Shown here: piece by piece, positions 9,627 to 61,257 of the stretch
How positions within the stretch are numbered: position 1 is the stretch's first letter
Layout of the letters: the number at the start of each line of letters is the position of its first letter
Sequence record: NC_101837.1
DNA length: 64,000 bases
Direction: 5' to 3' (one strand)
DNA from: a phage
The notes under the pieces: model-generated
What the model saw: the letters and a program-made list of their open reading frames with translations, nothing else
Told to the model about the DNA's origin: nothing
Databases searched by the model: none
Translations under genes and position numbers: made by a program

Positions 9627-10630
9627 TATACCTCCTCAGTTTTGTCAACAACTCCACCCACTGTTTCCCCAAGGCCAAGCTCTGTAGTGTAATCACCACC
9701 TTCTATGGTGCCCTTATGATGCACCGTGATCACCTTATAGAAGCCTGTATATTGCTTGCTTTTAAGATAAATAGTGGACTCTGGGAGGATAGCTCCGTTA
9801 AGGCATGTGGTTACAGTAAGGCCAACATCCTCTCTCGGGTTTTTCTTTTTCTTTTTAGATGTCGAACCACCTTTGGCAGCAGCTTTAGCTTTTCGTTTTT
9901 TAGCAGGTTCTGGGTTTTTAGGGGTAGGAGATCCGTGCATCCCAGACTCTGCACTTATTTCAAACACAGAGTCTTTGAACCTTTTTCCAACCTTGGTCCA
10001 ATACAAAGCCCCATCCTGAACGCTAAATGTTGAGTTGGTCAGCCTTGCAAACCTGCGGAGGTTCTCTGCAGTGTTTCCAGAGAAAGCCATAGAGTATTGC
10101 AAAGTCTGGTTTCCAAAACCAACAACCCTACCTTTTGGCAAGTTCATATCCTTCAGTAGGTCATTAAGCACAGAGTTCAGAGGTGTACCTTTCTGATAAG
10201 ATCTTGTGCTTTGGCACTTAATGATGTTCTCAGTGCCATCCCCAAAGATGAACTTAGTTTTTCTGGTCGGACCTTCCCACCTGTCTTCAACAAACTCCAC
10301 AGTTCCGGAGAATATCAACTGGTTCTCATTATCATAGCCAGCTTCAAACATAACTGCAAGGGCATCAGCCTGATGCATATCCAGATAGTTAACTGTATCG
10401 TCAGACAGGTTGTAAACTGTCACATAACCTTTGTTTGGCTCTTTGGTATTGTCCTTTTGTATGTCAAACTCTATATTGGCAGCACCAGTGTCTGAGCTAA
10501 CTTCATAAACTCCGGAATCACTCTCCCCTTTCTTTTCAACAGATTTTGGGATATTGGTTTTTGATTTACCGCCATGTTCTACAGGACGACCAAACAATAA
10601 TCGCCATGTTCTACGTCTGTACTCTGCCAT
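9626..10630 (-). CDS. hypothetical baseplate/tail protein with poly-Lys/Ala low-complexity segment
   Basis: 334 aa; contains KKRKAKAAAKGGSTSKKKKK encoded by a (TTTTTC)n-like tract near 9840-9900. Confidence 0.45.
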   Translation of the reverse strand: MAEYRRRTWRLLFGRPVEHGGKSKTNIPKSVEKKGESDSGVYEVSSDTGAANIEFDIQKDNTKEPNKGYVTVYNLSDDTVNYLDMHQADALAVMFEAGYDNENQLIFSGTVEFVEDRWEGPTRKTKFIFGDGTENIIKCQSTRSYQKGTPLNSVLNDLLKDMNLPKGRVVGFGNQTLQYSMAFSGNTAENLRRFARLTNSTFSVQDGALYWTKVGKRFKDSVFEISAESGMHGSPTPKNPEPAKKRKAKAAAKGGSTSKKKKKNPREDVGLTVTTCLNGAILPESTIYLKSKQYTGFYKVITVHHKGTIEGGDYTTELGLGETVGGVVDKTEEV

Positions 10631-30774: not shown

Positions 30775-30857
30775 GTGTCCGTATCACGGACAGTTAGTGT
30801 CCGTATTACGGGCAGATGTGTCCGCGTGACGGACAGTAGTGTCCGTATCACGGACAG
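30775..30857. repeat. array of four tandem 19-bp palindromic iterons (GTGTCCGTATCACGGACAG consensus), 21-22 bp period
   Basis: Copies at 30775, 30797, 30818, 30839; each an inverted repeat TGTCCGT-N3-ACGGACA; flanked upstream by AT-rich palindrome-containing tract 30651-30774. Confidence 0.85.
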
Positions 30858-30931
30858 TTAATAGTATCCGTTCCATGACGAACATAAAACATACGAATCC
30901 TTATAGTACAGATATTTAAGTTTTTACTGGT

Positions 30932-31282
30932 CTAACCAGTTGTTGACATCCGAATAACTTCTTCTGGTGGCAAAACTTTGGAAAATGTGCATCTTTTACC
31001 TCTCCCTTGTGTGGATGTTTCAACCACTCCTGCACATTCTAAAGTTTTAACGCACGCTGCTGCTTTTGTTTTCTTTATCCCAACATCTGCTGCAATTTTC
31101 CTTGTGCTTGGTGTGAAGCGTGAATTTCCTCCAAGCTTATACCAGTTGTGCAGGTAGCAGTATACGATCTTGTCATACAAGTCAAGAACAACAACCTCTC
31201 CAGTTGTGTCATTCAAAACTTTTGACATAGATAGTATTTCAAGGGGGACTTTAAGATATAGCAGCTTATCCCCATCTTTCAT
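30932..31282 (-). CDS. putative helix-turn-helix DNA-binding protein
   Basis: 116 aa; HTH-like segment TRKIAADVGIKKTKAAACVKTLECAGVV; stop lies ~75 bp from iteron array. Confidence 0.45.
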   Translation of the reverse strand: MKDGDKLLYLKVPLEILSMSKVLNDTTGEVVVLDLYDKIVYCYLHNWYKLGGNSRFTPSTRKIAADVGIKKTKAAACVKTLECAGVVETSTQGRGKRCTFSKVLPPEEVIRMSTTG

Positions 31283-32302: not shown

Positions 32303-32402
32303 AGTGACCCTCCGTTTTAATTTCAACGGTAGTATACCTAACTGTTTTGTTAATTTCAAGTGTTGACACTAGGTTATTTGTGTGGCAGGATAGACTGACA
32401 AA

Positions 32403-38382: not shown

Positions 38383-38450
38383 CAGTATCATTGACATGAC
38401 CACACGGACGTGGTATTGTTACCTCATACAATGTTAGGGAGGGTTTAACC

Positions 38451-39131: not shown

Positions 39132-39414
39132 GAAACCTTTAAAAGAGAAATTTGATAAGACAGCTTTTGTATTCGATACACCTCTGGACGACATCATCAG
39201 AGGTATGCAATCCTTGTATCGGAAGGCTGAATCTGAGCAGTTGTCTGAATCAGAACTTTACTGGCTTGGTTGGTGGGAGTTAAACCTGCCTAAAGCTGAA
39301 AGTTCTTGTCTGAGAACTGTTAAAACGTGCGCCCAAGAAAACGCTGCACTTGGAATCTACCACAAAAGGAAAAGATCAACAAAAAGCTCTCCAAGAAAGA
39401 CCAAAAAGTCTTGA
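39121..39414 (+). CDS. hypothetical protein
   Basis: 97-aa ORF overlapping upstream stop. Confidence 0.35.
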   Translation: MMAKKPLKEKFDKTAFVFDTPLDDIIRGMQSLYRKAESEQLSESELYWLGWWELNLPKAESSCLRTVKTCAQENAALGIYHKRKRSTKSSPRKTKKS

Positions 39415-39440
39415 CAAAAGTGTTATTAATCTGATATTAT
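39411..39440 (+). promoter_or_regulatory. sigma70-type promoter candidate
   Basis: TTGACA (39411-39416), 18-bp spacer, TATTAT (39435-39440), then ATCGG; upstream of 39474 gene with AGGAGA RBS. Confidence 0.45.
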
Positions 39441-47504: not shown

Positions 47505-47533
47505 TTGACTAATAGTATTAGATAATCTATAAT
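47505..47533 (+). promoter_or_regulatory. sigma70-type promoter
   Basis: TTGACT (47505-47510), 17-bp spacer, TATAAT (47528-47533); followed by 7-bp stem-loop GGCUCAC/GUGAGCC at transcript 5' end. Confidence 0.55.
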
Positions 47534-47573
47534 AATGGCTCACTTTGTTAGTGAGCCAGAAATGGAGACAGAT

Positions 47574-51718: not shown

Positions 51719-51997
51719 ATGAGCTGCGAAAAATCTTTTTTCATCATCATTTACGGTAAGGATAACTGCCCACATTGTGTCAGAGCAAAAGAATTTGCAA
51801 TCAGCAAAGGTCTGCCTTTTGTATATAAGACACTTGGCGAGGGCTACACAAAAGAAGAGCTTATTGAGAAGTGTAGTCCAATCGTCCCCAGAACGTTGCC
51901 GCAGATCTTCTTAGAAAGCGATCTTGACAGTGTCCATATAGGCGGTGCAGACGATTTCATCTCTTTTGTTAAGAATGGTTTTGGAGAGAAAAAGTGA
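51719..51997 (+). CDS. glutaredoxin/NrdH-like redoxin
   Basis: 92 aa; CPHC active-site motif (YGKDNCPHCVRAKEF). Confidence 0.7.
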   Translation: MSCEKSFFIIIYGKDNCPHCVRAKEFAISKGLPFVYKTLGEGYTKEELIEKCSPIVPRTLPQIFLESDLDSVHIGGADDFISFVKNGFGEKK

Positions 51998-52854
51998 AAG
52001 TTGTAAAACGGGACGGTAGAGAAGAGTTTTATAACGGAATTAAGGTGATCAAGGCGGCAGAGTCCGCCTTACTTGAGTCTGGACATACTGAAGAAGAAGC
52101 TTACCGGATAGCTTGTGCAGTTAATGAAGTTGTTGCTAACAATCTACCAACCGACCAGTGCACGATCTCTGTAAAAAATATCCATATCCTTGTTGAAGAT
52201 GCTCTTATGGATATGGGTTTAAAATGTGCAGCCAGAGAATACATCCAGTATAGACAGACAAGAGATAATAACAGAGAGGCAGGTGGAAAACTGCTTGCAG
52301 ATATTAGTGGCTTCTTGGATCGAACTTGTGATGAATTTACAAAAGAAAACGCAAATAAGCCTACTAATCATGTACACACTCATCGCGACCTGCTTGCAGG
52401 CATCCTTAGCAAACACCTTGCATCAACACAGATCCTGCCAGACCGTGTTTCAGAAGAGCACAATAAAGGCTTCATCCATGTGCATGATCTTGACTACTTG
52501 ATCAGTCCGTTAACAAACTGTTGTTTGGTAAATTATCCAGATATGTTGGAAAACGGATTCAACATTGGCAACGCCCATGTCAGTAAGCCGAAGTCAATAG
52601 GGGTTGCAACAACAATCCTTAGTCAAATCTCTAGCGCGGTAGCTAGTGCTCAATATGGTGGTCAGACTATGAGCCATATTGATCATTATCTGGCACAGTA
52701 TGCTGAAGCAACCTATGAGAAGAACCTTAAATTTTGCCAGGAACATTGGTTGCCGGATGCTGAAACTGTTGCAATGCAAATGACAGATAAAGACGTGTTT
52801 GACAGCATGCAGACGTTGCTTTATCAGATCAACACACTAACCTCGGTAAACGGT
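51994..52854 (+). CDS. nrdD: anaerobic ribonucleoside-triphosphate reductase NrdD, exon 1
   Basis: GTG start; ATP-cone (VVKRDGREEF), conserved class III RNR segments; frame hits stop only because intron begins at 52855. Confidence 0.8.
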
Positions 52855-53111
52855 TAACAAACTGGCCGTTTTAAAACTCTGCTAACCTCAGTATGAGGGG
52901 TCAGCTGATCGCTGGCTAACGGGGAACGCTAAGGCGAAAGCTATGCCAATCCCGTGACTAGCTTCACAAGGAGTGAGGCGGTTGTAACGACTAACCTTTT
53001 GGTGTAGGGATTATGGAAGATTCCGAAACGCAGGGGTCTGATTAAGAATCACACGGTGTGATTTCAGGCAAGAGATAGTCTGGCCTTGTGGAAACATAAG
53101 GGTGGGGACCG
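52855..53111 (+). other. group I self-splicing intron (ORF-less) interrupting nrdD
   Basis: 5' exon ends in U (52854); intron ends in G (53111); internal guide GCCGUU (52865-52870) pairs with exon AACGGU including U.G; P7-like GACUAG/CUAGUC-type elements; NrdD sequence ...NTLTSVNG|QTPFITLS... continuous after removal. Confidence 0.75.
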
Positions 53112-54374
53112 CAAACCCCTTTTATCACATTAAGTTTAGGTTTGGACACTTCGGTCTTTGGTAGAATGATTACCAAAAATTACTTGAAAGTCCACAAAAT
53201 GGGTCTTGGTGAAGAACGTATCACACCTGTGTTCCCTAAAGTGCTGTTCTTCCTGGAAGAGGGTGTCAACATGAACCCTGGGGATCCTAACTATGATTTG
53301 AAACGATTAGCTCTGGAATGCTGTGCAGAACGTATCTATCCTGACTTCGTATCTGTACCACTAAATAGAAAAGTGACAGGCTCGACAGATGGCAAAGTAA
53401 CTAGCATGGGTTGCAGGAGTTTTCTTAGCAAATACAATGACTTGGAAACAGGCGAGGAGAAATACCTTGGCAGATTTAACTTAGGCGTTGTTAGCCTTAA
53501 CCTGCCAATGATTGCGGCAAAAGCTAAGACGGAAGGTGTTGATTTCTTTGCAGTTCTTGACGAATACTTGGATCTTGCATATGAGGCTCACCTTGTAAGG
53601 GTTAACCGTCTAAAAGGAACAAAGGCAGGGCAGAACCCCATCATGTGGTGTGAAGGCGCTCTTGCTCGCCTGGATCCTGAAGAGAGTATTGATAAACTCT
53701 TCTATGACGGGTACGCTTCCATCAGTATTGGGTATATTGGTGTGTATGAAACCTGTCAGATTTTGGGCAGAGAGGGTGACAAGGCTTTAGCTCTTGGAAT
53801 CCTTCAGCACATGAGAGATGCTTGTGAGCGATACAAGAAGGAAAGTAGACTAGCATTTAGCTTGTACGGCACTCCTTCTGAGAGTCTATGCTATAAAGCT
53901 GCAACCTGTCTGGATCGTGAATATCCGGAAGTGTTGAAGCACGAGCATGAATATCTCACCAACAGTTTCCATCAGCCAGTGTGGATAAATAGCTCTCCTT
54001 TTGATAAGTGGGAGTATGAGGAAGGTTTTGCTATGATCTCCTCTGGTGGCAACATTGGATACGTAGAGACACCTAACCTGAAAAACAACCTGGATGCTTT
54101 AGAGGCTCTTGTTGACTTCGGGTATAAACATATTATGTATTTTGGTATTAACCAACCTGTGGATAAATGTCTCAAGTGTGGTTTCTCTGGTGAGTTCAGT
54201 GCAACAGCTAAAGGGTTCTGCTGCCCTGCGTGCGGATGCCACGATGAACAATATATCTCAGTGATCCGAAGAGTGTCTGGATATCTTTCCAGTCCTAACT
54301 CCCGTCCTTACAATAAAGGTAAGCAAGCGGAAGTTATCGAGCGAGTTAAGCACTACGGAAGTTGTGGTTGCTGA
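53112..54374 (+). CDS. nrdD: anaerobic ribonucleoside-triphosphate reductase NrdD, exon 2
   Basis: Frame open from 53100; ITPVFPK...EEGVN..., C-terminal zinc-ribbon CLKCG...CPACG and glycyl-radical region. Confidence 0.8.
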   Translation, partial: QTPFITLSLGLDTSVFGRMITKNYLKVHKMGLGEERITPVFPKVLFFLEEGVNMNPGDPNYDLKRLALECCAERIYPDFVSVPLNRKVTGSTDGKVTSMGCRSFLSKYNDLETGEEKYLGRFNLGVVSLNLPMIAAKAKTEGVDFFAVLDEYLDLAYEAHLVRVNRLKGTKAGQNPIMWCEGALARLDPEESIDKLFYDGYASISIGYIGVYETCQILGREGDKALALGILQHMRDACERYKKESRLAFSLYGTPSESLCYKAATCLDREYPEVLKHEHEYLTNSFHQPVWINSSPFDKWEYEEGFAMISSGGNIGYVETPNLKNNLDALEALVDFGYKHIMYFGINQPVDKCLKCGFSGEFSATAKGFCCPACGCHDEQYISVIRRVSGYLSSPNSRPYNKGKQAEVIERVKHYGSCGC

Positions 54375-54438
54375 TACTTGACAAAAGCCACAAGGATGTG
54401 GCACTATACAGATGTTTAGGGAAGTTAGGAAACAAGAA

Positions 54439-55404
54439 ATGGCTAAATTATCAACAGAAGAGTTTATAGAGAAGGCGAAAATCATTCACGGTTATAAATA
54501 CGATTACACGAAAACAGTGTACGTGGATTGCTATGCGAAGGTTTGCATTACCTGCCAAATCCATGGGGATTTTATGCAAGCACCTTGTAAACACTTGCAA
54601 GGTCGTGGTTGTCCTTTTTGTGCAAAACTTTCTCGTGCTGCAAAGTGTAATAAAGGTCTTAAATTTGTAGAAAGGGCCAAAGAAATCCATGGAGATAAAT
54701 ATGACTACTCTCTCGTATACTACAAGACTTGCAAAGACAGGGTAGAAATAATCTGCAACACTTGTGGAAATCACTTTACACAGACACCTGATAACCATAT
54801 AAATTTGAAAAGAGGTTGTCCAGTTTGCAAGGGGTCAAGAATCTCACAAAGTAAAACATCACCACACGAAAAGTGGGTTGAGTCCATAAGAAGTAGAAAT
54901 CCTTATGTTGAGATATTGGAAGAAATTATTGGGTGGGATAAGAAAGTCCTGTGCTGCTGTAAAGGTTGTAGCCACACATGGTTAACCGTACCAAGCAGTC
55001 TTAAGCAGGGACATGCTTGCCCTAGATGCGCTAAAACAGGATTTTTATCACACGATAACGGAAAACTCTACATTATGGTTGATGATCCAGAAGTACCTAC
55101 ATTTATGAAAATAGGGGTCAGTCATAATGAAAGTAAGCGAAGAGACCAGATACTTAAAAGTGCACAAAGATCTAGAGCTGGTATCCGCGATCTTCACATA
55201 GTGAAAACGTTGGAAGGATCAACTGAAAACATGCTGGCTGTAGAAAAATCTATGCACAAAGCCTTCAGTAAATATAAAATAAACTTCCCTGTAAAATTTG
55301 ATGGTAGTACCGAATTCTTTAACTACAGACCTGAAGTGTTCAGTATGGTAGAATCAGCGCACAGAGAGATTTGTTGTAAACATAGGACAGGTAATAACCT
55401 GTAG
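54439..55404 (+). CDS. GIY-YIG-superfamily (T5orf172-like) nuclease with N-terminal zinc-finger repeats; putative free-standing homing endonuclease
   Basis: C-terminal GKLYIMVDDPEVPTFMKIGVSHNESKRRDQIL resembles T5orf172/MUG113 motif; N-terminal repeated IHGxKYDY...CxxC...GCPxC units; start at ATG 54439 (AGGA RBS). Confidence 0.55.
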   Translation: MAKLSTEEFIEKAKIIHGYKYDYTKTVYVDCYAKVCITCQIHGDFMQAPCKHLQGRGCPFCAKLSRAAKCNKGLKFVERAKEIHGDKYDYSLVYYKTCKDRVEIICNTCGNHFTQTPDNHINLKRGCPVCKGSRISQSKTSPHEKWVESIRSRNPYVEILEEIIGWDKKVLCCCKGCSHTWLTVPSSLKQGHACPRCAKTGFLSHDNGKLYIMVDDPEVPTFMKIGVSHNESKRRDQILKSAQRSRAGIRDLHIVKTLEGSTENMLAVEKSMHKAFSKYKINFPVKFDGSTEFFNYRPEVFSMVESAHREICCKHRTGNNL

Positions 55405-55452: not shown

Positions 55453-55569
55453 ATGTCATCAGGCATTTATAAAATTTGCAAGTGTGGTTGTCGTTGCAAT
55501 CTTCGTTGGTGCAAGGCACTGGACGATTTTATTTGGCATTGCCCTGAATGTGATACGGAGTATCTATGA
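55453..55569 (+). CDS. small cysteine-rich (zinc-ribbon-like) peptide
   Basis: 38 codons, strong AAAGGAGGTG RBS, 8 Cys (CKCGCRC...WHCPEC), stop overlaps nrdG start (ATGA); below ORF-track size cutoff. Confidence 0.4.
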   Translation: MSSGIYKICKCGCRCNLRWCKALDDFIWHCPECDTEYL

Positions 55570-56039
55570 ACATTGTCGGATACACAGAAGTATCTTACAC
55601 AGAAGGGCCAGGTATTAGAACTGCCTTGTGGGTATCTGGGTGCCCACACGCTTGCCCTGGTTGCTTTAATCAGGCATTTTGGTCAAAAGATAAGGGGAGG
55701 GAGTTCACTGAAGAAGATTTGCAAAAAATCTTGTCAGATCTGGATAACCCGTCTGTGTGCGGTATCTCTCTGCTGGGTGGAGAACCCTTAGCATACTATA
55801 ATGAGCCAGGTATTATTAGCCTGATGGAGAAAATTAAGGAAAAATTTGGTGACAAGAAAACTATTCTTGTATATACTGGGTTCACATTTGACCATATCTC
55901 TAGTGATGTTCTTAAACTGGCTGATATCATCATTGACGGTAAGTATGTAAAAGATTTACCAACCAAGAAACCGTTCCGAGGCAGTGATAACCAAAGAATG
56001 TTTAAAAAAGTATCAGGCGGTTGGGTTCAGGTAGACTAG
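55566..56039 (+). CDS. nrdG: anaerobic ribonucleotide reductase activating protein
   Basis: Radical-SAM cluster motif CPHACPGC (CxxxCxxC) near N-terminus; 157 aa; adjacent to nrdD. Confidence 0.85.
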   Translation: MNIVGYTEVSYTEGPGIRTALWVSGCPHACPGCFNQAFWSKDKGREFTEEDLQKILSDLDNPSVCGISLLGGEPLAYYNEPGIISLMEKIKEKFGDKKTILVYTGFTFDHISSDVLKLADIIIDGKYVKDLPTKKPFRGSDNQRMFKKVSGGWVQVD

Positions 56040-56042
56040 TTG

Positions 56043-56072
56043 TTGACAAAGCTTTGTTTAGATAGGTATAAT
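56043..56072 (+). promoter_or_regulatory. sigma70-type promoter (AGTTGTTGACA family)
   Basis: TTGACA (56043-56048), 18-bp spacer, TATAAT (56067-56072), then TATCG; drives small basic ORF and downstream genes. Confidence 0.5.
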
Positions 56073-56103
56073 TATCGTAAAATGAAAGCAGAGGAGGTGC
56101 CAA

Positions 56104-56217
56104 ATGGCTAAAAAAGCCTTGAAGAAGGCGTACAAGAAAGAGATTGCGCTTGAGCTTAAGAAAAAACACAAGCGTGAAAAGAAACATCATGAAGATGAAG
56201 AGGGGGTGCAACAGTGA
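56104..56217 (+). CDS. small highly basic peptide
   Basis: 37 codons (MAKKALKKAYKKEIALELKKKHKREKKHHEDEEGVQQ), GAGGAGGTG RBS, stop overlaps GTG start of next ORF. Confidence 0.35.
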   Translation: MAKKALKKAYKKEIALELKKKHKREKKHHEDEEGVQQ

Positions 56218-56564
56218 CACAAGAACGTATCGATTTGGCTAATAAGTTTGTAGACCTCATTTTGCCACGGTTAGTTACTCAACATGCAGATGCTATTTCT
56301 ACTAATCTTGATGGCTTACGCCTAATGCTGAATCGCACAGATGACCCTCGTATTCGGGCTGATTTAGAAGCCTCTGCCAACAAACTGGAAAAGTTCTTGC
56401 AAGTAGACACGCAAGAAGCCTTGCACAAGATTATGGTGGAAGGTTTCTCTAAAGAATTTACCATTAAAGAGCTTAAGGAGCTGATCCACCAAGAAGAGAT
56501 GAATATCCGAGTTCAGGCTGTTGCAAGCAGCATGGAAGCGGCTATTGAAAAACTGTTGCAGTAA
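56214..56564 (+). CDS. hypothetical protein
   Basis: 116-aa ORF (GTG start), predicted helical. Confidence 0.4.
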   Translation: MTQERIDLANKFVDLILPRLVTQHADAISTNLDGLRLMLNRTDDPRIRADLEASANKLEKFLQVDTQEALHKIMVEGFSKEFTIKELKELIHQEEMNIRVQAVASSMEAAIEKLLQ

Positions 56565-56602
56565 AAGTACTTGGCACATCTCAATCTGAAAGGAGTCCCA
56601 AC

Positions 56603-57391
56603 ATGGGTCGAGCTAAAGAAACAAAACGCATGCGTGATGAAGCTAGAGAGGCTCGCAAATCTGATCGCCTGCGTAAGGCTGCTGAGAAATTTGCTGACGA
56701 AAGAGAGCACACCGCTCCAGCTCTCCGACCAATGAATAAGAAGCAGCAAAAGTATCTTGATTATCTAGGGTCACGTAAGATTATTATTGTAAACGGCGTG
56801 TTTGGATCCGGTAAGACATTTATGGCATCTGCATATGCAGGTGATCTTCTGCGTAAGAACGAGATTGATAAGATCATTGTTGCACGTCCTTACGTCCAGA
56901 CAGGAAAGACTTCAGGATTTAAACCCGGAAATGCAATGCAGAAACTGTGGCCCTATCTTCGAAGCATGATGGACACGATTTGTCGTCGTGTTGGCAAAGG
57001 TGCTTTTGCCGCAATGCTGGGAGACGGTCAGAACAGTCGTATCGAGATTTGTGAAGTTGAAAGCATTCGTGGTCGTAGTTTCGATGAGCGATGCTTTGTC
57101 CTGATTGACGAGGCACAGCAAACTAACCCTGAAGAAATGTTGTCAATTATCACAAGGATCTCTGATCAAGCCACCCTTGTAATTATGGGTGATAATAGCC
57201 AACGTGACATCCCTGGTAAATCTGGCCTTGCATGGGTGACGGATTTCTTTACTCGTCATCCAGATCCTGAGGTTGGAATGATCAGCTTTGATAGTCCAGA
57301 CGATGTCGTTCGTTCCGGGTTGGGTCGTCAAATCGCACTCAATCTTATTGAGGATCGTGCAAATCATATTTGGACCCCTGTTTCCGAGTAA
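56603..57391 (+). CDS. phoH: PhoH-like ATPase
   Basis: Walker A GVFGSGKTF, Walker B-like VLIDEAQ, PhoH-family length (262 aa). Confidence 0.75.
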   Translation: MGRAKETKRMRDEAREARKSDRLRKAAEKFADEREHTAPALRPMNKKQQKYLDYLGSRKIIIVNGVFGSGKTFMASAYAGDLLRKNEIDKIIVARPYVQTGKTSGFKPGNAMQKLWPYLRSMMDTICRRVGKGAFAAMLGDGQNSRIEICEVESIRGRSFDERCFVLIDEAQQTNPEEMLSIITRISDQATLVIMGDNSQRDIPGKSGLAWVTDFFTRHPDPEVGMISFDSPDDVVRSGLGRQIALNLIEDRANHIWTPVSE

Positions 57392-57435
57392 TACAGAAGG
57401 GTGGTTATTCCACCCTTAAATATCTAAAACAGTTG

Positions 57436-57464
57436 TTGACAAACAGGTAAGCTTTAGATATTAT
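57436..57464 (+). promoter_or_regulatory. sigma70-type promoter (AGTTGTTGACA family)
   Basis: TTGACA (57436-57441), 17-bp spacer, TATTAT (57459-57464), then TATCGG; preceded by hairpin AAGGGUGG/CCACCCUU after phoH. Confidence 0.5.
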
Positions 57465-57494
57465 TATCGGACAAGACAAGGAGAAGGAGATAGT

Positions 57495-57806
57495 ATGGCT
57501 ACAATACAAGAGAGACTGAATAAAATATACTGCCTGTTTGTCTATAACGGCGAGACAATTTTGGCAAATAAAGGATCCAAGAATGTGTGGATCAAGGACA
57601 GCGGTGGTAATATAATCAACTTAGCGTTGCTACGTGAGCGCCGACACAGATTCTTTATCGAGTCTCGAATTATTGAAAGCAGCACTTGCTACAGAACAGG
57701 CGATAAAGTAATTGTTGACAATGATACGTGGTATGTGGTAGATTGGCAATCATTGAGTTGTGATGCTTCTGACAATCGTAAGTACTCCATAGTGATTGCT
57801 AAATAA
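57495..57806 (+). CDS. hypothetical protein
   Basis: 103-aa ORF with GGAGAAGGAG RBS. Confidence 0.4.
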   Translation: MATIQERLNKIYCLFVYNGETILANKGSKNVWIKDSGGNIINLALLRERRHRFFIESRIIESSTCYRTGDKVIVDNDTWYVVDWQSLSCDASDNRKYSIVIAK

Positions 57807-57866
57807 AGGTAAATGTGAATCAGGTTTAAATAAATAGCTTTCAACTTCCAATATTAAGGATTTCTC

Positions 57867-58916
57867 ATGAATTTAACACCTCGCAGCACCATGGTACACG
57901 GCATGAAAGAAAAACAGAACGGTTTCGAACCTATGAGTAATAAAATGTTTGGTATGCCGGGCGGTATCATGGAAACATACAGCTACCCAACACCTGTTGT
58001 TGACCACGTTCTTTATATCGACGATTTGGAGGACCTGCAGGATCATATGTCTCGTCTGCAGACGATCCGTATGGCTCAGCCGGAAGAAAGCATTCGTGTG
58101 ATCATCAATAGCCCTGGTGGTTGCGTGCACATTGCAATGGCCTATCTGCAGGCATTCCGCGAGTCTCAGGCAAGCGTTGTTGCACATGCTGAAGGGATGT
58201 GCTGCTCTGCTGGAACAATCTTATGGCTTGGTTGCAAAGAACGTACTGTGGCTCCGGACACAGAATTTATGTTCCACTACTATCAAGGTGGCACTTATGG
58301 TAACGGTGTTAACATGAATACTCAGGTCAGCTACTGGAAAAAACGTTTTGAACACCTGATCGAAAAATACTACGGTGGGGTGCTGACAGAAGATGAGATC
58401 GCATCCATCACAGCTGGTGGCGAAGTGTGGTTGGACGGAGAAGAGTTGGCAGCACGCACTGGAGCTATTATTCTGGATGAAGGCAACATACAACGCATCC
58501 AGAACGGACAAAAACCGAAAAAGCTTCTGGCAAAAGGTGATGAAGAAGGCGTGTTAGGTGAAGCAGGTCTTCCGGAGATTCATCAGTGCACATCTTTAGA
58601 TGAGTTAGTTCATGCTGTTGAATCTGCAAAAGCGGGTGGTTCGAAAGGTGATGTTCACACTGTGTTCCTGAATCTGCAGATGGAAAGTGGCGAGACCGTC
58701 CGAATTGCCCTGGGTGAGATTACTTCAGAAGATCTGCAGAGATTCTCTGTCGTTGAACTTCAGGATATTCTGTCTCAATTGAAGACTACTCTGAACGGCG
58801 GTGAAGAGGTTAAGGTGAAAGATAAGACTCGCAAGCGTCTTGTGGACAATATTATTAAAACAGCAAAAGAGCTCAATGAAAAAATCCTTGGTGCAGGAAT
58901 TGTCGAAGAAGCTTAA
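57867..58916 (+). CDS. ClpP/S14-family serine peptidase (possible prohead protease) with C-terminal extension
   Basis: ClpP-like motifs INSPGG, GMCCSAG (Ser), MFHYYQGG (His); AAGGA RBS; followed by strong terminator. Confidence 0.6.
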   Translation: MNLTPRSTMVHGMKEKQNGFEPMSNKMFGMPGGIMETYSYPTPVVDHVLYIDDLEDLQDHMSRLQTIRMAQPEESIRVIINSPGGCVHIAMAYLQAFRESQASVVAHAEGMCCSAGTILWLGCKERTVAPDTEFMFHYYQGGTYGNGVNMNTQVSYWKKRFEHLIEKYYGGVLTEDEIASITAGGEVWLDGEELAARTGAIILDEGNIQRIQNGQKPKKLLAKGDEEGVLGEAGLPEIHQCTSLDELVHAVESAKAGGSKGDVHTVFLNLQMESGETVRIALGEITSEDLQRFSVVELQDILSQLKTTLNGGEEVKVKDKTRKRLVDNIIKTAKELNEKILGAGIVEEA

Positions 58917-60724: not shown

Positions 60725-61254
60725 CAGGTATGCTTCTGATTAACTGGGAAGACCTCTATGGGGACAAAGACCCTGTTGCGTTTGTTGATCGTAGGTGGAG
60801 ATACACTGAAGAACAACTGGCGGCAAAAAATCTAACTGCAAAACGCAGAAAGATCATCCAGTGCAAGTACAAATACGCACAGTTTGCTGCAAAAGTGTCT
60901 CCACAAATCGAGAGCTTTGTGCTTAAATTGTATGACGAGTACCTCAAATCCAAATTGGATTTTGTGCAGGTGTACCGTGCACAGGTACGACCAGATACCA
61001 ACATGTGTAGATGGAAGGTTGTTTGTGAAGGTAAAGATTTGCCGCTCAGCTTGACAATTGAGTGGCGTTATGGGTATCATGAGTGTGGTCTGTATGATAT
61101 TTGGGATGTCATTGTAGATCCTGCTAAGCATCTGAACACAGAGGAGCTGGAATATATCAATAAGGTTATTCTCGATATGTTTTTCAGCTACACACATGAA
61201 AACTCTGAGAAAGAACGGGATAATTTTCTTGACACCCTCAGCGACCATTTGTAG
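60721..61254 (+). CDS. hypothetical protein
   Basis: 177-aa ORF, start overlaps upstream stop. Confidence 0.4.
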   Translation: MTGMLLINWEDLYGDKDPVAFVDRRWRYTEEQLAAKNLTAKRRKIIQCKYKYAQFAAKVSPQIESFVLKLYDEYLKSKLDFVQVYRAQVRPDTNMCRWKVVCEGKDLPLSLTIEWRYGYHECGLYDIWDVIVDPAKHLNTEELEYINKVILDMFFSYTHENSEKERDNFLDTLSDHL

Positions 61255-61257
61255 TAT
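61229..61257 (+). promoter_or_regulatory. sigma70-type promoter candidate
   Basis: TTGACA (61229-61234), 17-bp spacer, TAGTAT (61252-61257), upstream of 61285 gene with GGGAGG RBS. Confidence 0.4.

Follow-up and report, generated by a model that had tools for sequence, protein, structure and literature searches.

For phage rV5, P118, P121, P93 and P106/107 have been listed as predicted sigma-70 promoters (Table S4 of Kropinski et al. 2013, PMC3606486), P118 and P121 having been found by MEME combined with inspection (PMC3606486). In the sister genus Certrevirus, a putative early/middle promoter was described as AAAA(N3-4)TGTTGAC(N17-19)TATAAT, with -10, -35 and UP elements (Buttimer et al. 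2020, PMC7344957). T4-type phages carry PeSLs, composite promoter-terminator motifs (Arbiol et al. 2010, PMC2839356; Comeau et al. 2014, PMC4122927). The literature searched contained no mapping of transcript 5' ends (TSS or RNA-seq) for Vequintavirinae, rV5 or PVP-SE1.

The DNA analyzed here, a stretch of 64,000 nucleotides referred to as the window, belongs to a Vequintavirus (an rV5-like coliphage) of the murica-like lineage. Its promoters are orthologous to those predicted in rV5 and occupy the same junctions: the promoter at 56043 is the equivalent of P118 (nrdG|ORF118), that at 57436 of P121 (phoH|ORF121), that at 39411 of P93 (ORF92|93) and that at 47505 of P106/P107 (thyX|ORF107). In GenBank, NC_011041 lists these rV5 promoters as "regulatory" features, and the record for phage Gotham also annotates them, the Gotham equivalent of the 56043 promoter having been predicted by PhagePromoter. 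The elements at 56043 and 57436 are real, ordinary and already known as predictions of host-type sigma-70 promoters. rV5 P121 shares 46 identical nucleotides with the window copy, including AAAACAGTTGTTGACA...TATTATTATCGGA. In contrast, P118 differs between the two phages: the window has AGTTG where rV5 has AATCG and TATCG where rV5 has TGTCG, the 3' half of the spacer is different, and the leader in the window contains two additional A residues. These differences are what give the 56043 and 57436 promoters the appearance of an extended common motif.

Anatomy and setting of the predicted 56043 and 57436 promoters

The first-pass annotation had described promoter-like sequences at about 56037-56077 and 57431-57470, and both are present as described. 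The first (56043-56072, plus strand) consists of TTGACA at 56043-56048, an 18-bp spacer and TATAAT at 56067-56072, and agrees with the consensus at 12/12 positions. The second (57436-57464, plus strand) has TTGACA at 57436-57441, a 17-bp spacer and TATTAT at 57459-57464, an 11/12 match. Each thus combines an exact TTGACA with a near-consensus -10 that has A2 and T6, at a spacing of 17 +/- 1 bp, and within the 46-64 kb interval they rank as the best and joint second-best sigma-70 sites. Both lie in non-coding gaps (56040-56103 and 57392-57494) and are followed by co-oriented genes: a 37-aa Lys-rich ORF (ATG at 56104), ORF119 and phoH after the 56043 promoter, and ORF121 (ATG at 57495), a ClpP-like protease and a methyltransferase after the 57436 promoter. 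An extended -10 (TG at -15/-14) is absent from both. An Rfam scan of 55500-58000 gave no matches at E <= 1, so no known leader or riboswitch lies behind these promoters.

Each -35 hexamer is contained in the same 11-mer, AGTTGTTGACA (56038-56048 and 57431-57441), and each -10 is directly followed by TATCG (56073-56077 and 57465-57469). The segments concerned, TATCGTA at 56073-56079 and TATCGGA at 57465-57471 (both plus strand, the latter within a TAT-TAT-TAT repeat), are probably simply the discriminator plus the likely start base, with +1 predicted at the A at about 56079 and the A at about 57471.

Chance was controlled for with order-2 Markov simulations and by comparing the strands co-oriented and anti-oriented with the genes. 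Promoter-like sites occur at a co-oriented to anti-oriented ratio of 30:8 in the window and 76:18 in rV5, about 4:1. That the elements are of the host sigma-70 type, as had been proposed, is borne out by this bias in position and strand, by the invariance of the -35 and by the independent predictions of the rV5 paper and GenBank.

The remaining sites that had been grouped with these two, at 39411, 47505, 61229, 32363 and 30938, all exist, but the extended-motif family they were thought to form is reduced to two members: AGTTG together with TATCG is found only at 56043 and 57436. The 39411 promoter (39411-39440, plus strand; TTGACA-18-TATTAT) has AAGTC upstream (AAAAAGTC), and its TATCG overlaps the -10; its hexamers are identical in rV5, S127 and WM. 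At 47505 (47505-47533, plus strand; TTGACT-17-TATAAT) and at 61229, the hexamers alone are held in common. A hairpin with a 9-bp stem (47536-47558, -15.2 kcal/mol) stands at the 5' end of the transcript predicted from 47505. The site at 61229-61257 (plus strand; TTGACA-17-TAGTAT, consensus 10/12) is a weaker candidate. Its TTGACA is retained, but the -10 has degenerated in S127 (CAGTGT) and WM (AAGTGC), so its status as a promoter is doubtful or lineage-specific. At the RNA ligase gene, where the rV5 paper expected a promoter and listed none (PMC3606486), there is a candidate at 32363-32391 (plus strand) composed of TTGACA, a 17-bp spacer ending in TGG, and CAGGAT, an arrangement of the extended -10 type. 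Its TTGACA and TGG are kept, the S127 version being TGGCAAAAT, and it stands back to back with the minus-strand equivalent of rV5 P81 (TTGAAA-17-TATACT, -35 from 32359). TG at -15/-14 is present here and at 38391 and 62888.

Constraint on the hexamers, the flanks and the A-tract

Orthologues in 11-14 related phages were compared, with GenBank phage records as the main source; a PhoH-based search of IMG/VR gave four loci. Divergence was counted at eight intergenic promoters, comparing the window with a small set of three genomes (rV5, S127 and WM). In this set the -35 hexamer shows 0/144 differences versus 49/417 (11.8%) in the spacers (p = 4e-7). The five bases upstream of the -35 (13/120, 10.8%; p = 0.87) and the five after the -10 (10/120, 8.3%; p = 0.33) diverge at the spacer rate. 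The -10 hexamer (12/144 differences) likewise cannot be told apart statistically from the spacer (p = 0.28), a result to which indel artefacts and the decay of the 61229 site contribute. Among the 12 orthologues of each promoter TTGACA is invariant, even in a clade in which the neighboring intergenic DNA is largely unalignable. Those of the 56043 promoter retain TTGACA and TATA(A/C)T amid variable flanks, and conservation of the 57436 promoter extends through Vequintavirus and to a clade whose PhoH is 85% identical.

The bases that make the two window promoters look alike behave differently. The AGTTG position is occupied in orthologues by AATCG, AATTG, AACTG, AACTA, TTGG and others, and the TATCG position of the 56043 promoter by TGTCG, TAGCG, TGCCA or TAACT; at this promoter both blocks vary even within the genus. 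At the 57436 promoter, S127 and 10C2 lack one TAT; this 3-bp deletion shifts TATCG, so that CGAAC follows the -10 there. The spacer stretch TTTAGATA is common to both promoters but does not keep register with either hexamer, and Gotham has GTGTAGATA instead. A separate regulator site should be conserved and held in a fixed register, and none of these segments is. Across the 76 rV5 sites the positions after the -10 carry no information content, and no family-wide enrichment of TATCG was seen. Since the extra common bases are not conserved in related phages, they give no sign of an added regulatory site.

The suggestion of such a site does survive in one respect: although the AGTTG/TATCG extension is not conserved, an UP-like A-tract is real at the family level. 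At the 57436 promoter the proximal UP-like element is AAAACAGTTG (57426-57435, plus strand), made up of an A-tract at 57426-57429 (about -45 to -42) and then TG beside the -35; nearly all P121 orthologues retain both tract and TG, those of the divergent IMG/VR clade among them. From -45 to -38 this promoter reads AAAACAGT, conserved in orthologues, and the 56043 promoter reads GTAGACTA, with no tract. E. coli UP-element promoters, for example rrnB P1, have an A/T tract between -40 and -60, with a proximal consensus of AAAAAARNR at -46 to -38. Here too an A-tract, at about -45 to -40, adjoins a consensus -35, but it is a short tract of the proximal type only, with no distal subsite. The rV5 genome has 30 co-oriented and 5 anti-oriented occurrences of AAAA(N2-6)TTGACA, versus 3.3 expected in total. 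The only extra signals over the 76 sites are weak: the A-tract (about -45 to -40), a preference for S (G or C) and avoidance of T at -36, and TG at -15/-14, with TGn before the -10 in about half.

The segment 57426-57464 fits the Certrevirus consensus exactly, as AAAA-N4-TGTTGAC-N18-TATTAT, and is the sole match to the whole consensus in the window; rV5 has five co-oriented sites. The coding-direction strand of rV5 is enriched in TGTTGACA and in A-tract-TTGACA. In Vequintavirus, however, TG and the A-tract are weak preferences, 24/53 sites having G at -36 and 36% having four or more A residues within -46 to -40, and the 56043 promoter matches only TGTTGAC...TATAAT, with no A-tract.

Explanations for the shared bases

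We consider it very probable that the 56043 and 57436 elements are strong promoters for unmodified host E-sigma70 and that their extra identity is not a separate binding site. The identity itself is real enough. With 21/34 flank positions identical, they are the most similar of 702 site pairs (Bonferroni binomial p ~0.03), and the next-best pairs score 20 and 19. For rV5, where 4367 pairs were ranked by similarity, P118 and P121 fall outside the top 8. Both this similarity and the copy number of the 11-mer are somewhat above simple chance models.

One way to account for the resemblance is that the promoters belong to a mobile or recombining PeSL-like cassette, or that gene conversion took place between neighbors 1.4 kb apart, which we regard as unlikely. 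Directly after the phoH stop and upstream of the 57436 promoter lies a stem-loop, AAGGGTGG-TTATT-CCACCCTT (57397-57417, plus strand; RNAfold -13.7 kcal/mol), which is conserved in Vequintavirus orthologues and is probably a weak terminator closing the upstream transcription unit. As in a PeSL, a stem-loop and a near-perfect TTGACA-N17-TATAAT promoter are joined at a gene-module junction (57397-57464), and the 57436 element does combine a stem-loop, an A-tract and a near-consensus promoter. Moreover, the junction that follows phoH is a site of insertion or deletion, with about 0.9 kb inserted in two IMG/VR relatives and another gene carried in Mydovirus and Seunavirus, and the 57436 promoter is nearer to the window-type 56043 promoter than to the rV5-type. 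Unlike in PeSLs, however, the copies have no repeated cassette-level homology, and the surrounding DNA is not a hyperplastic region but a conserved nucleotide-metabolism block. No stem-loop precedes the 56043 promoter, whose upstream flank is taken up by the end of nrdG. Furthermore, the runs common to the two promoters are short (<=13 nt) and out of register, and the differences from the rV5/FV3 type are scattered single substitutions with no transferred patch. Mean pairwise flank identity among the promoter sites is 9.5 +/- 2.8 of 34; this equals the base-composition expectation, and there is therefore no genome-wide cassette homology. A PeSL-type cassette as a family was rejected for want of such homology and in view of the promoter that has no stem-loop.

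The idea that AGTTGTTGACA...TATCG is the binding site of a phage-encoded or host regulator, co-regulating a set of early promoters, draws on the top rank of the 56043/57436 pair and on the 11-mer itself. The window contains four exact copies versus ~0.1 expected, which places it among the three most repeated 11-mers, each with four copies, and rV5 has a further copy at 106348, in a 2.6-kb non-coding region. The copy at 30938-30948 (plus strand), which had been noted as lacking a recognizable -10 and does lack one, is 78 bp from the iteron array, and such a regulator might also act there. This copy, however, runs antisense to the final codons (M-S-T-T-G-stop) of a replication initiator gene (30932-31282, minus strand), and the copy at 9643-9653 (minus strand) lies in sense within coding sequence (G-V-V-D-K) at the 3' end of the baseplate-hub gene, where it reads TTGACA-12-TATAATG and the Shine-Dalgarno sequence and ATG of the gene that follows overlap its TATAAT. 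Half of the four copies thus lie in coding DNA with no usable -10, and both were rejected as promoters. AGTTGTTGACA was also rejected by eye as a DnaA box or IHF site, being a poor match to their consensus sequences. The 11-mer is missing from both promoters in S127 and, in WM, is present only at P121. About 0.3 AGTTG promoters per window are expected by chance, calculated from the base frequencies of the family. Together with the loss of AGTTG and TATCG in 56043 orthologues, flanks that diverge at the spacer rate, the displaced TATCG of S127 and 10C2 and the lack of any family signal after the -10, these observations make a regulator site very unlikely. Equally improbable is a version confined to the murica-like lineage, in which a phage or host DNA-binding protein recognizes AGTTGTTGACA at the two strong promoters, the iteron/putative origin and the baseplate-hub 3' end; if true, that protein would tie the two strong promoters to replication or to a temporal switch.

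That the matches are chance look-alikes in AT-rich DNA, unused as promoters, is scarcely credible: at a loose threshold the excess over shuffles is indeed weak (47 sites versus 37.6 +/- 6.3), but the 12/12 and 11/12 scores, the 4:1 strand bias, the intergenic location and a -35 that is invariant amid diverged flanks all argue against it.

Proposed function and significance

On the reading we prefer, that of ordinary promoters for the unmodified host polymerase, sigma region 4 would bind TTGACA and sigma region 2 would bind TATAAT or TATTAT, 17-18 bp apart, and at the 57436 promoter the A-tract probably contacts the alpha C-terminal domain in UP-like fashion. Transcription would start at an A ~7 nt after the -10 and yield leaders of 24-25 nt with strong Shine-Dalgarno sequences. 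Because it lies downstream of a terminator-like hairpin, the 57436 promoter is predicted to open a new transcription unit comprising ORF121, the ClpP-like protease and the methylase. The 56043 promoter may boost or re-initiate transcription of the small basic ORF, ORF119 and phoH after nrdG. Like these polymerase contacts and start sites, we infer the strength of the two promoters and their early or middle timing from sequence. Their shared AGTTG, TTTAGATA and TATCG would then be a lineage-specific coincidence, produced by a few point changes over weak family preferences.

The importance of these elements goes little beyond annotation. The comparison provides a list of constrained promoter positions, in which the -35 hexamer is constrained absolutely and the flanks and spacer are unconstrained. 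It also illustrates that a few lineage-specific substitutions can yield a visually striking extended motif. It further confirms that, throughout its nucleotide-metabolism block, this rV5-like phage depends on host promoters close to consensus.

Two predicted host-type promoters around phoH

By megablast, the window belongs to the genus Vequintavirus (rV5-like coliphages), and more than 100 phage records match it at 91-99% identity; coordinate offsets place its rV5 counterpart at ~33.1-96.8 kb. Transcription is leftward from 1 to ~32360 (structural genes, tRNAs, replication initiator, kinase/phosphatase) and rightward at ~32400-64000 (RNA ligase, DNA ligase, nucleases, thyX, nrdAB, nrdDG, phoH, ClpP-like protease, methylases). 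The first-pass annotation reported nearly identical promoter-like sequences at 56037-56077 and 57431-57470, and both are indeed present on the plus strand. The first reads TAGTTG-TTGACA (56043-56048), an 18-bp spacer, TATAAT (56067-56072) and TATCGTA, and falls within the 64 bp that separate the nrdG stop codon (56037-56039) from the ATG at 56104 of a 37-codon Lys-rich ORF, which is followed by ORF119 and phoH. The second reads AAAACAGTTG-TTGACA (57436-57441), 17 bp, TATTAT (57459-57464) and TATCGGA, and sits in the 103-bp phoH-ORF121 gap (ORF121 ATG at 57495), downstream of a stem-loop at 57397-57417 (-13.7 kcal/mol). Among the sigma-70 matches in 46-64 kb, the first ranks top and the second shares second place.

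These elements are real and are ordinary predicted promoters of host type, already in the literature and databases. The rV5 genome paper predicts both as sigma-70 promoters, P118 (TTGACAAAGCTTTGTTAAGTTGGTTATAAT) and P121 (AAAACAGTTGTTGACAAACAGGTAAGCTTTAGATATTATTATCGGA), and P093 and P107 as the counterparts of the sites at 39411 and 47505 (PMC3606486, Table S4); its authors describe such promoters as scattered genome-wide and propose a separate late motif (PMC3606486). NC_011041 annotates the rV5 promoters as "regulatory" features, and the phage Gotham counterparts were predicted by PhagePromoter. Promoter status is also reflected in orientation. Scanning the entire rebuilt rV5 genome and the window (-35 at least 5/6, -10 at least 4/6, total at least 10/12) gave 76 sites co-oriented with genes versus 18 anti-oriented in rV5, and 30 versus 8 in the window. 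In 11 relatives with orthologues of the two promoters (rV5, FV3, S127, 10C2, WM, JEP1, Gotham and four IMG/VR contigs), TTGACA is invariant and the -10 stays T-A-x-x-x-T; in three of the four contigs PhoH identity is only 85% and intergenic DNA is largely unalignable. A promoter before the small ORF is also present in Mydovirus and Seunavirus, where phoH is tightly packed with no promoter directly downstream.

Relatives have insertions where phoH meets the ORF121 promoter: two IMG/VR relatives (3300045988 contigs, 2286-3204) have ~0.9 kb of extra DNA there, and Mydovirus and Seunavirus a 633-639-bp gene, annotated as DprA-like in Seunavirus. Further upstream, a 330-aa ORF (54412-55404, plus strand) lies between nrdD and nrdG, where rV5 has three small ORFs. 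Alignment of many relatives to the window begins only at ~55922, which puts a mosaic boundary within nrdG or shortly before its start. Within nrdD (51994-54374), a 257-bp insertion relative to rV5 (52845-53101, plus strand) splits the reading frame into ORFs at 51994-52857 and 53142-54374. The insertion gives a full-length match to the Rfam group I intron model (29.3 bits, E = 1.3e-5, below the gathering score) and probably represents a group I intron lacking an ORF; T4 nrdD likewise has a group I intron, and the split nrdD of WM contains an HNH endonuclease gene.

Constraint outside the hexamers

Conservation beyond the hexamers, AGTTG upstream and TATCG downstream, had been taken as a sign of an added regulatory site shared by a promoter family. 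The listed sites do exist, but apart from 39411, which also shares an A-tract and whose TATCG overlaps the -10, they have only the hexamers in common, so the "extended" motif belongs to two sites rather than to a family. The proposed regulatory site is not supported. Among relatives of the 56043 promoter, AGTTG is replaced by AATCG, AATTG, AACTG, AACTA, TTGG or TTGA, and TATCG by TGTCG, TAGCG, TGCCA, TAACT or TAGCT; in the 57436 promoter of S127 and 10C2, one TAT is gone from the TAT-TAT-TAT repeat, leaving CGAAC next to the -10. When eight intergenic plus-strand promoters were compared with rV5, S127 and WM, the -35 hexamer showed 0/144 differences (0%; Fisher p = 4e-7 against spacer) and the spacer 49/417 (11.8%). 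Positions -40 to -36 (13/120, 10.8%, p = 0.87) and the first 5 nt after the -10 (10/120, 8.3%, p = 0.33) diverged at about the spacer rate, and both extra blocks therefore evolve like unconstrained spacer.

Information content across the 76 rV5 sites gave only weak signals beyond the hexamers: position -36 (G32, C24, A14, T6; 0.28 bit), A enrichment at about -45 to -40, and TG at -15/-14 (T 39/76, G 40/76), with no signal in the 20 bases downstream of the -10. Against control TTGACA occurrences, T was avoided at -36 (p = 0.002) and A stood out at -43 (p = 0.003). In rV5, AAAA(N2-6)TTGACA has 30 co-oriented and 5 anti-oriented occurrences versus 3.3 expected in total, and TGTTGACA has 25 and 8 versus 6.3 expected; TA...T-TATCG is not enriched. 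Of the original interpretation only the UP-like A-tract holds, and a published precedent exists for it in Certrevirus, the sister genus: Buttimer et al. read the consensus AAAA(N3-4)TGTTGAC(N17-19)TATAAT as early/middle promoters made up of -10, -35 and UP elements (PMC7344957). The window element at 57426-57464 fits this consensus exactly.

The two promoters are the most similar of 702 pairs of promoter-like sites in the window, with 21 of 34 flank positions identical (runners-up 20 and 19; mean 9.5, SD 2.8; Bonferroni-corrected binomial p ~0.03). The rV5 versions fall outside the top 8 of 4367 pairs. The exact 11-mer AGTTGTTGACA has four copies in the window versus ~0.1 expected, and is one of three 11-mers with four; two of its copies lie inside coding DNA and were ruled out as promoters. 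S127 lacks it at both promoters, and WM keeps it at P121 only. Relative to both hexamers, the shared TTTAGATA is out of register, and it is reduced to TAGATA in Gotham, the closest relative at the 56043 site; the FV3, rV5 and IMG/VR-a types differ from the window type there by scattered single substitutions. From the base preferences of the sites, chance alone is estimated to give ~0.3 promoters with AGTTG per window. We conclude that the resemblance is a mild lineage-specific coincidence atop a weak tendency of the family to have T/G ahead of the -35 and A behind it.

Other promoter-like sites

The sites at 39411 and 47505 are well conserved; 61229 is doubtful, since S127 and WM keep TTGACA but lose the -10. 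A perfect 9-bp-stem hairpin (47536-47558, plus strand; TGGCTCACT-TTGTT-AGTGAGCCA, -15.2 kcal/mol), kept in rV5, S127 and WM, begins 3 nt past the -10 of the 47505 promoter and so would form the extreme 5' terminus of the mRNA, where it might act as an operator or a 5' stabiliser. The small-ORF region of rV5 (~108-116 kb, outside the window) has many near-consensus promoters with GC-rich hairpins 10-15 nt past the -10 (e.g., GGCGGGAAAACTTCCCGCC and GGGGGGCAACAAGCCCC), a recurrent arrangement missing from Table S4 (PMC3606486). Inside ORF121, TTGACA-18-TAGATT preceded by TG (57715-57744, plus strand; TAGACT in relatives) lies ~120 nt upstream of the ClpP-like gene and is kept in all relatives, which is uninformative because it is within coding sequence.

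The plus-strand site at 32363, listed with a weaker -10, is a better candidate than was thought: TTGACA-17-(TGG)CAGGAT is of the extended -10 type (S127 reads TGGCAAAAT). Divergent promoters lie back to back at 32354-32391 around the palindrome GTGTTGACAC, the minus-strand partner (TTGAAA-17-TATACT) matching rV5 P81. The 32363 site is a plausible candidate promoter for the RNA ligase gene, for which the rV5 paper expected a promoter yet listed none (PMC3606486). Four tandem 21-22 bp repeats (GTGTCCGTATCACGGACAGTTA; 30775-30860), each with an internal palindrome, sit in a 400-bp non-coding gap adjoining the replication initiator gene (30932-31282, minus strand) and resemble the iterons of an origin, here a putative one.

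Predicted operation of the two promoters

Both hexamers would be recognised by host E-sigma70, and the conserved A-tract at 57436 probably gives added alpha-CTD contact. TATCG(T/G)A would comprise the discriminator and the likely +1 A (~56079 and ~57471), predicting leaders of ~25 nt whose Shine-Dalgarno sequences are GAGGAGG or AAGGAG. The upstream unit probably ends at the hairpin behind phoH, so that the 57436 promoter would open a unit of ORF121, the ClpP-like protease and methylase.
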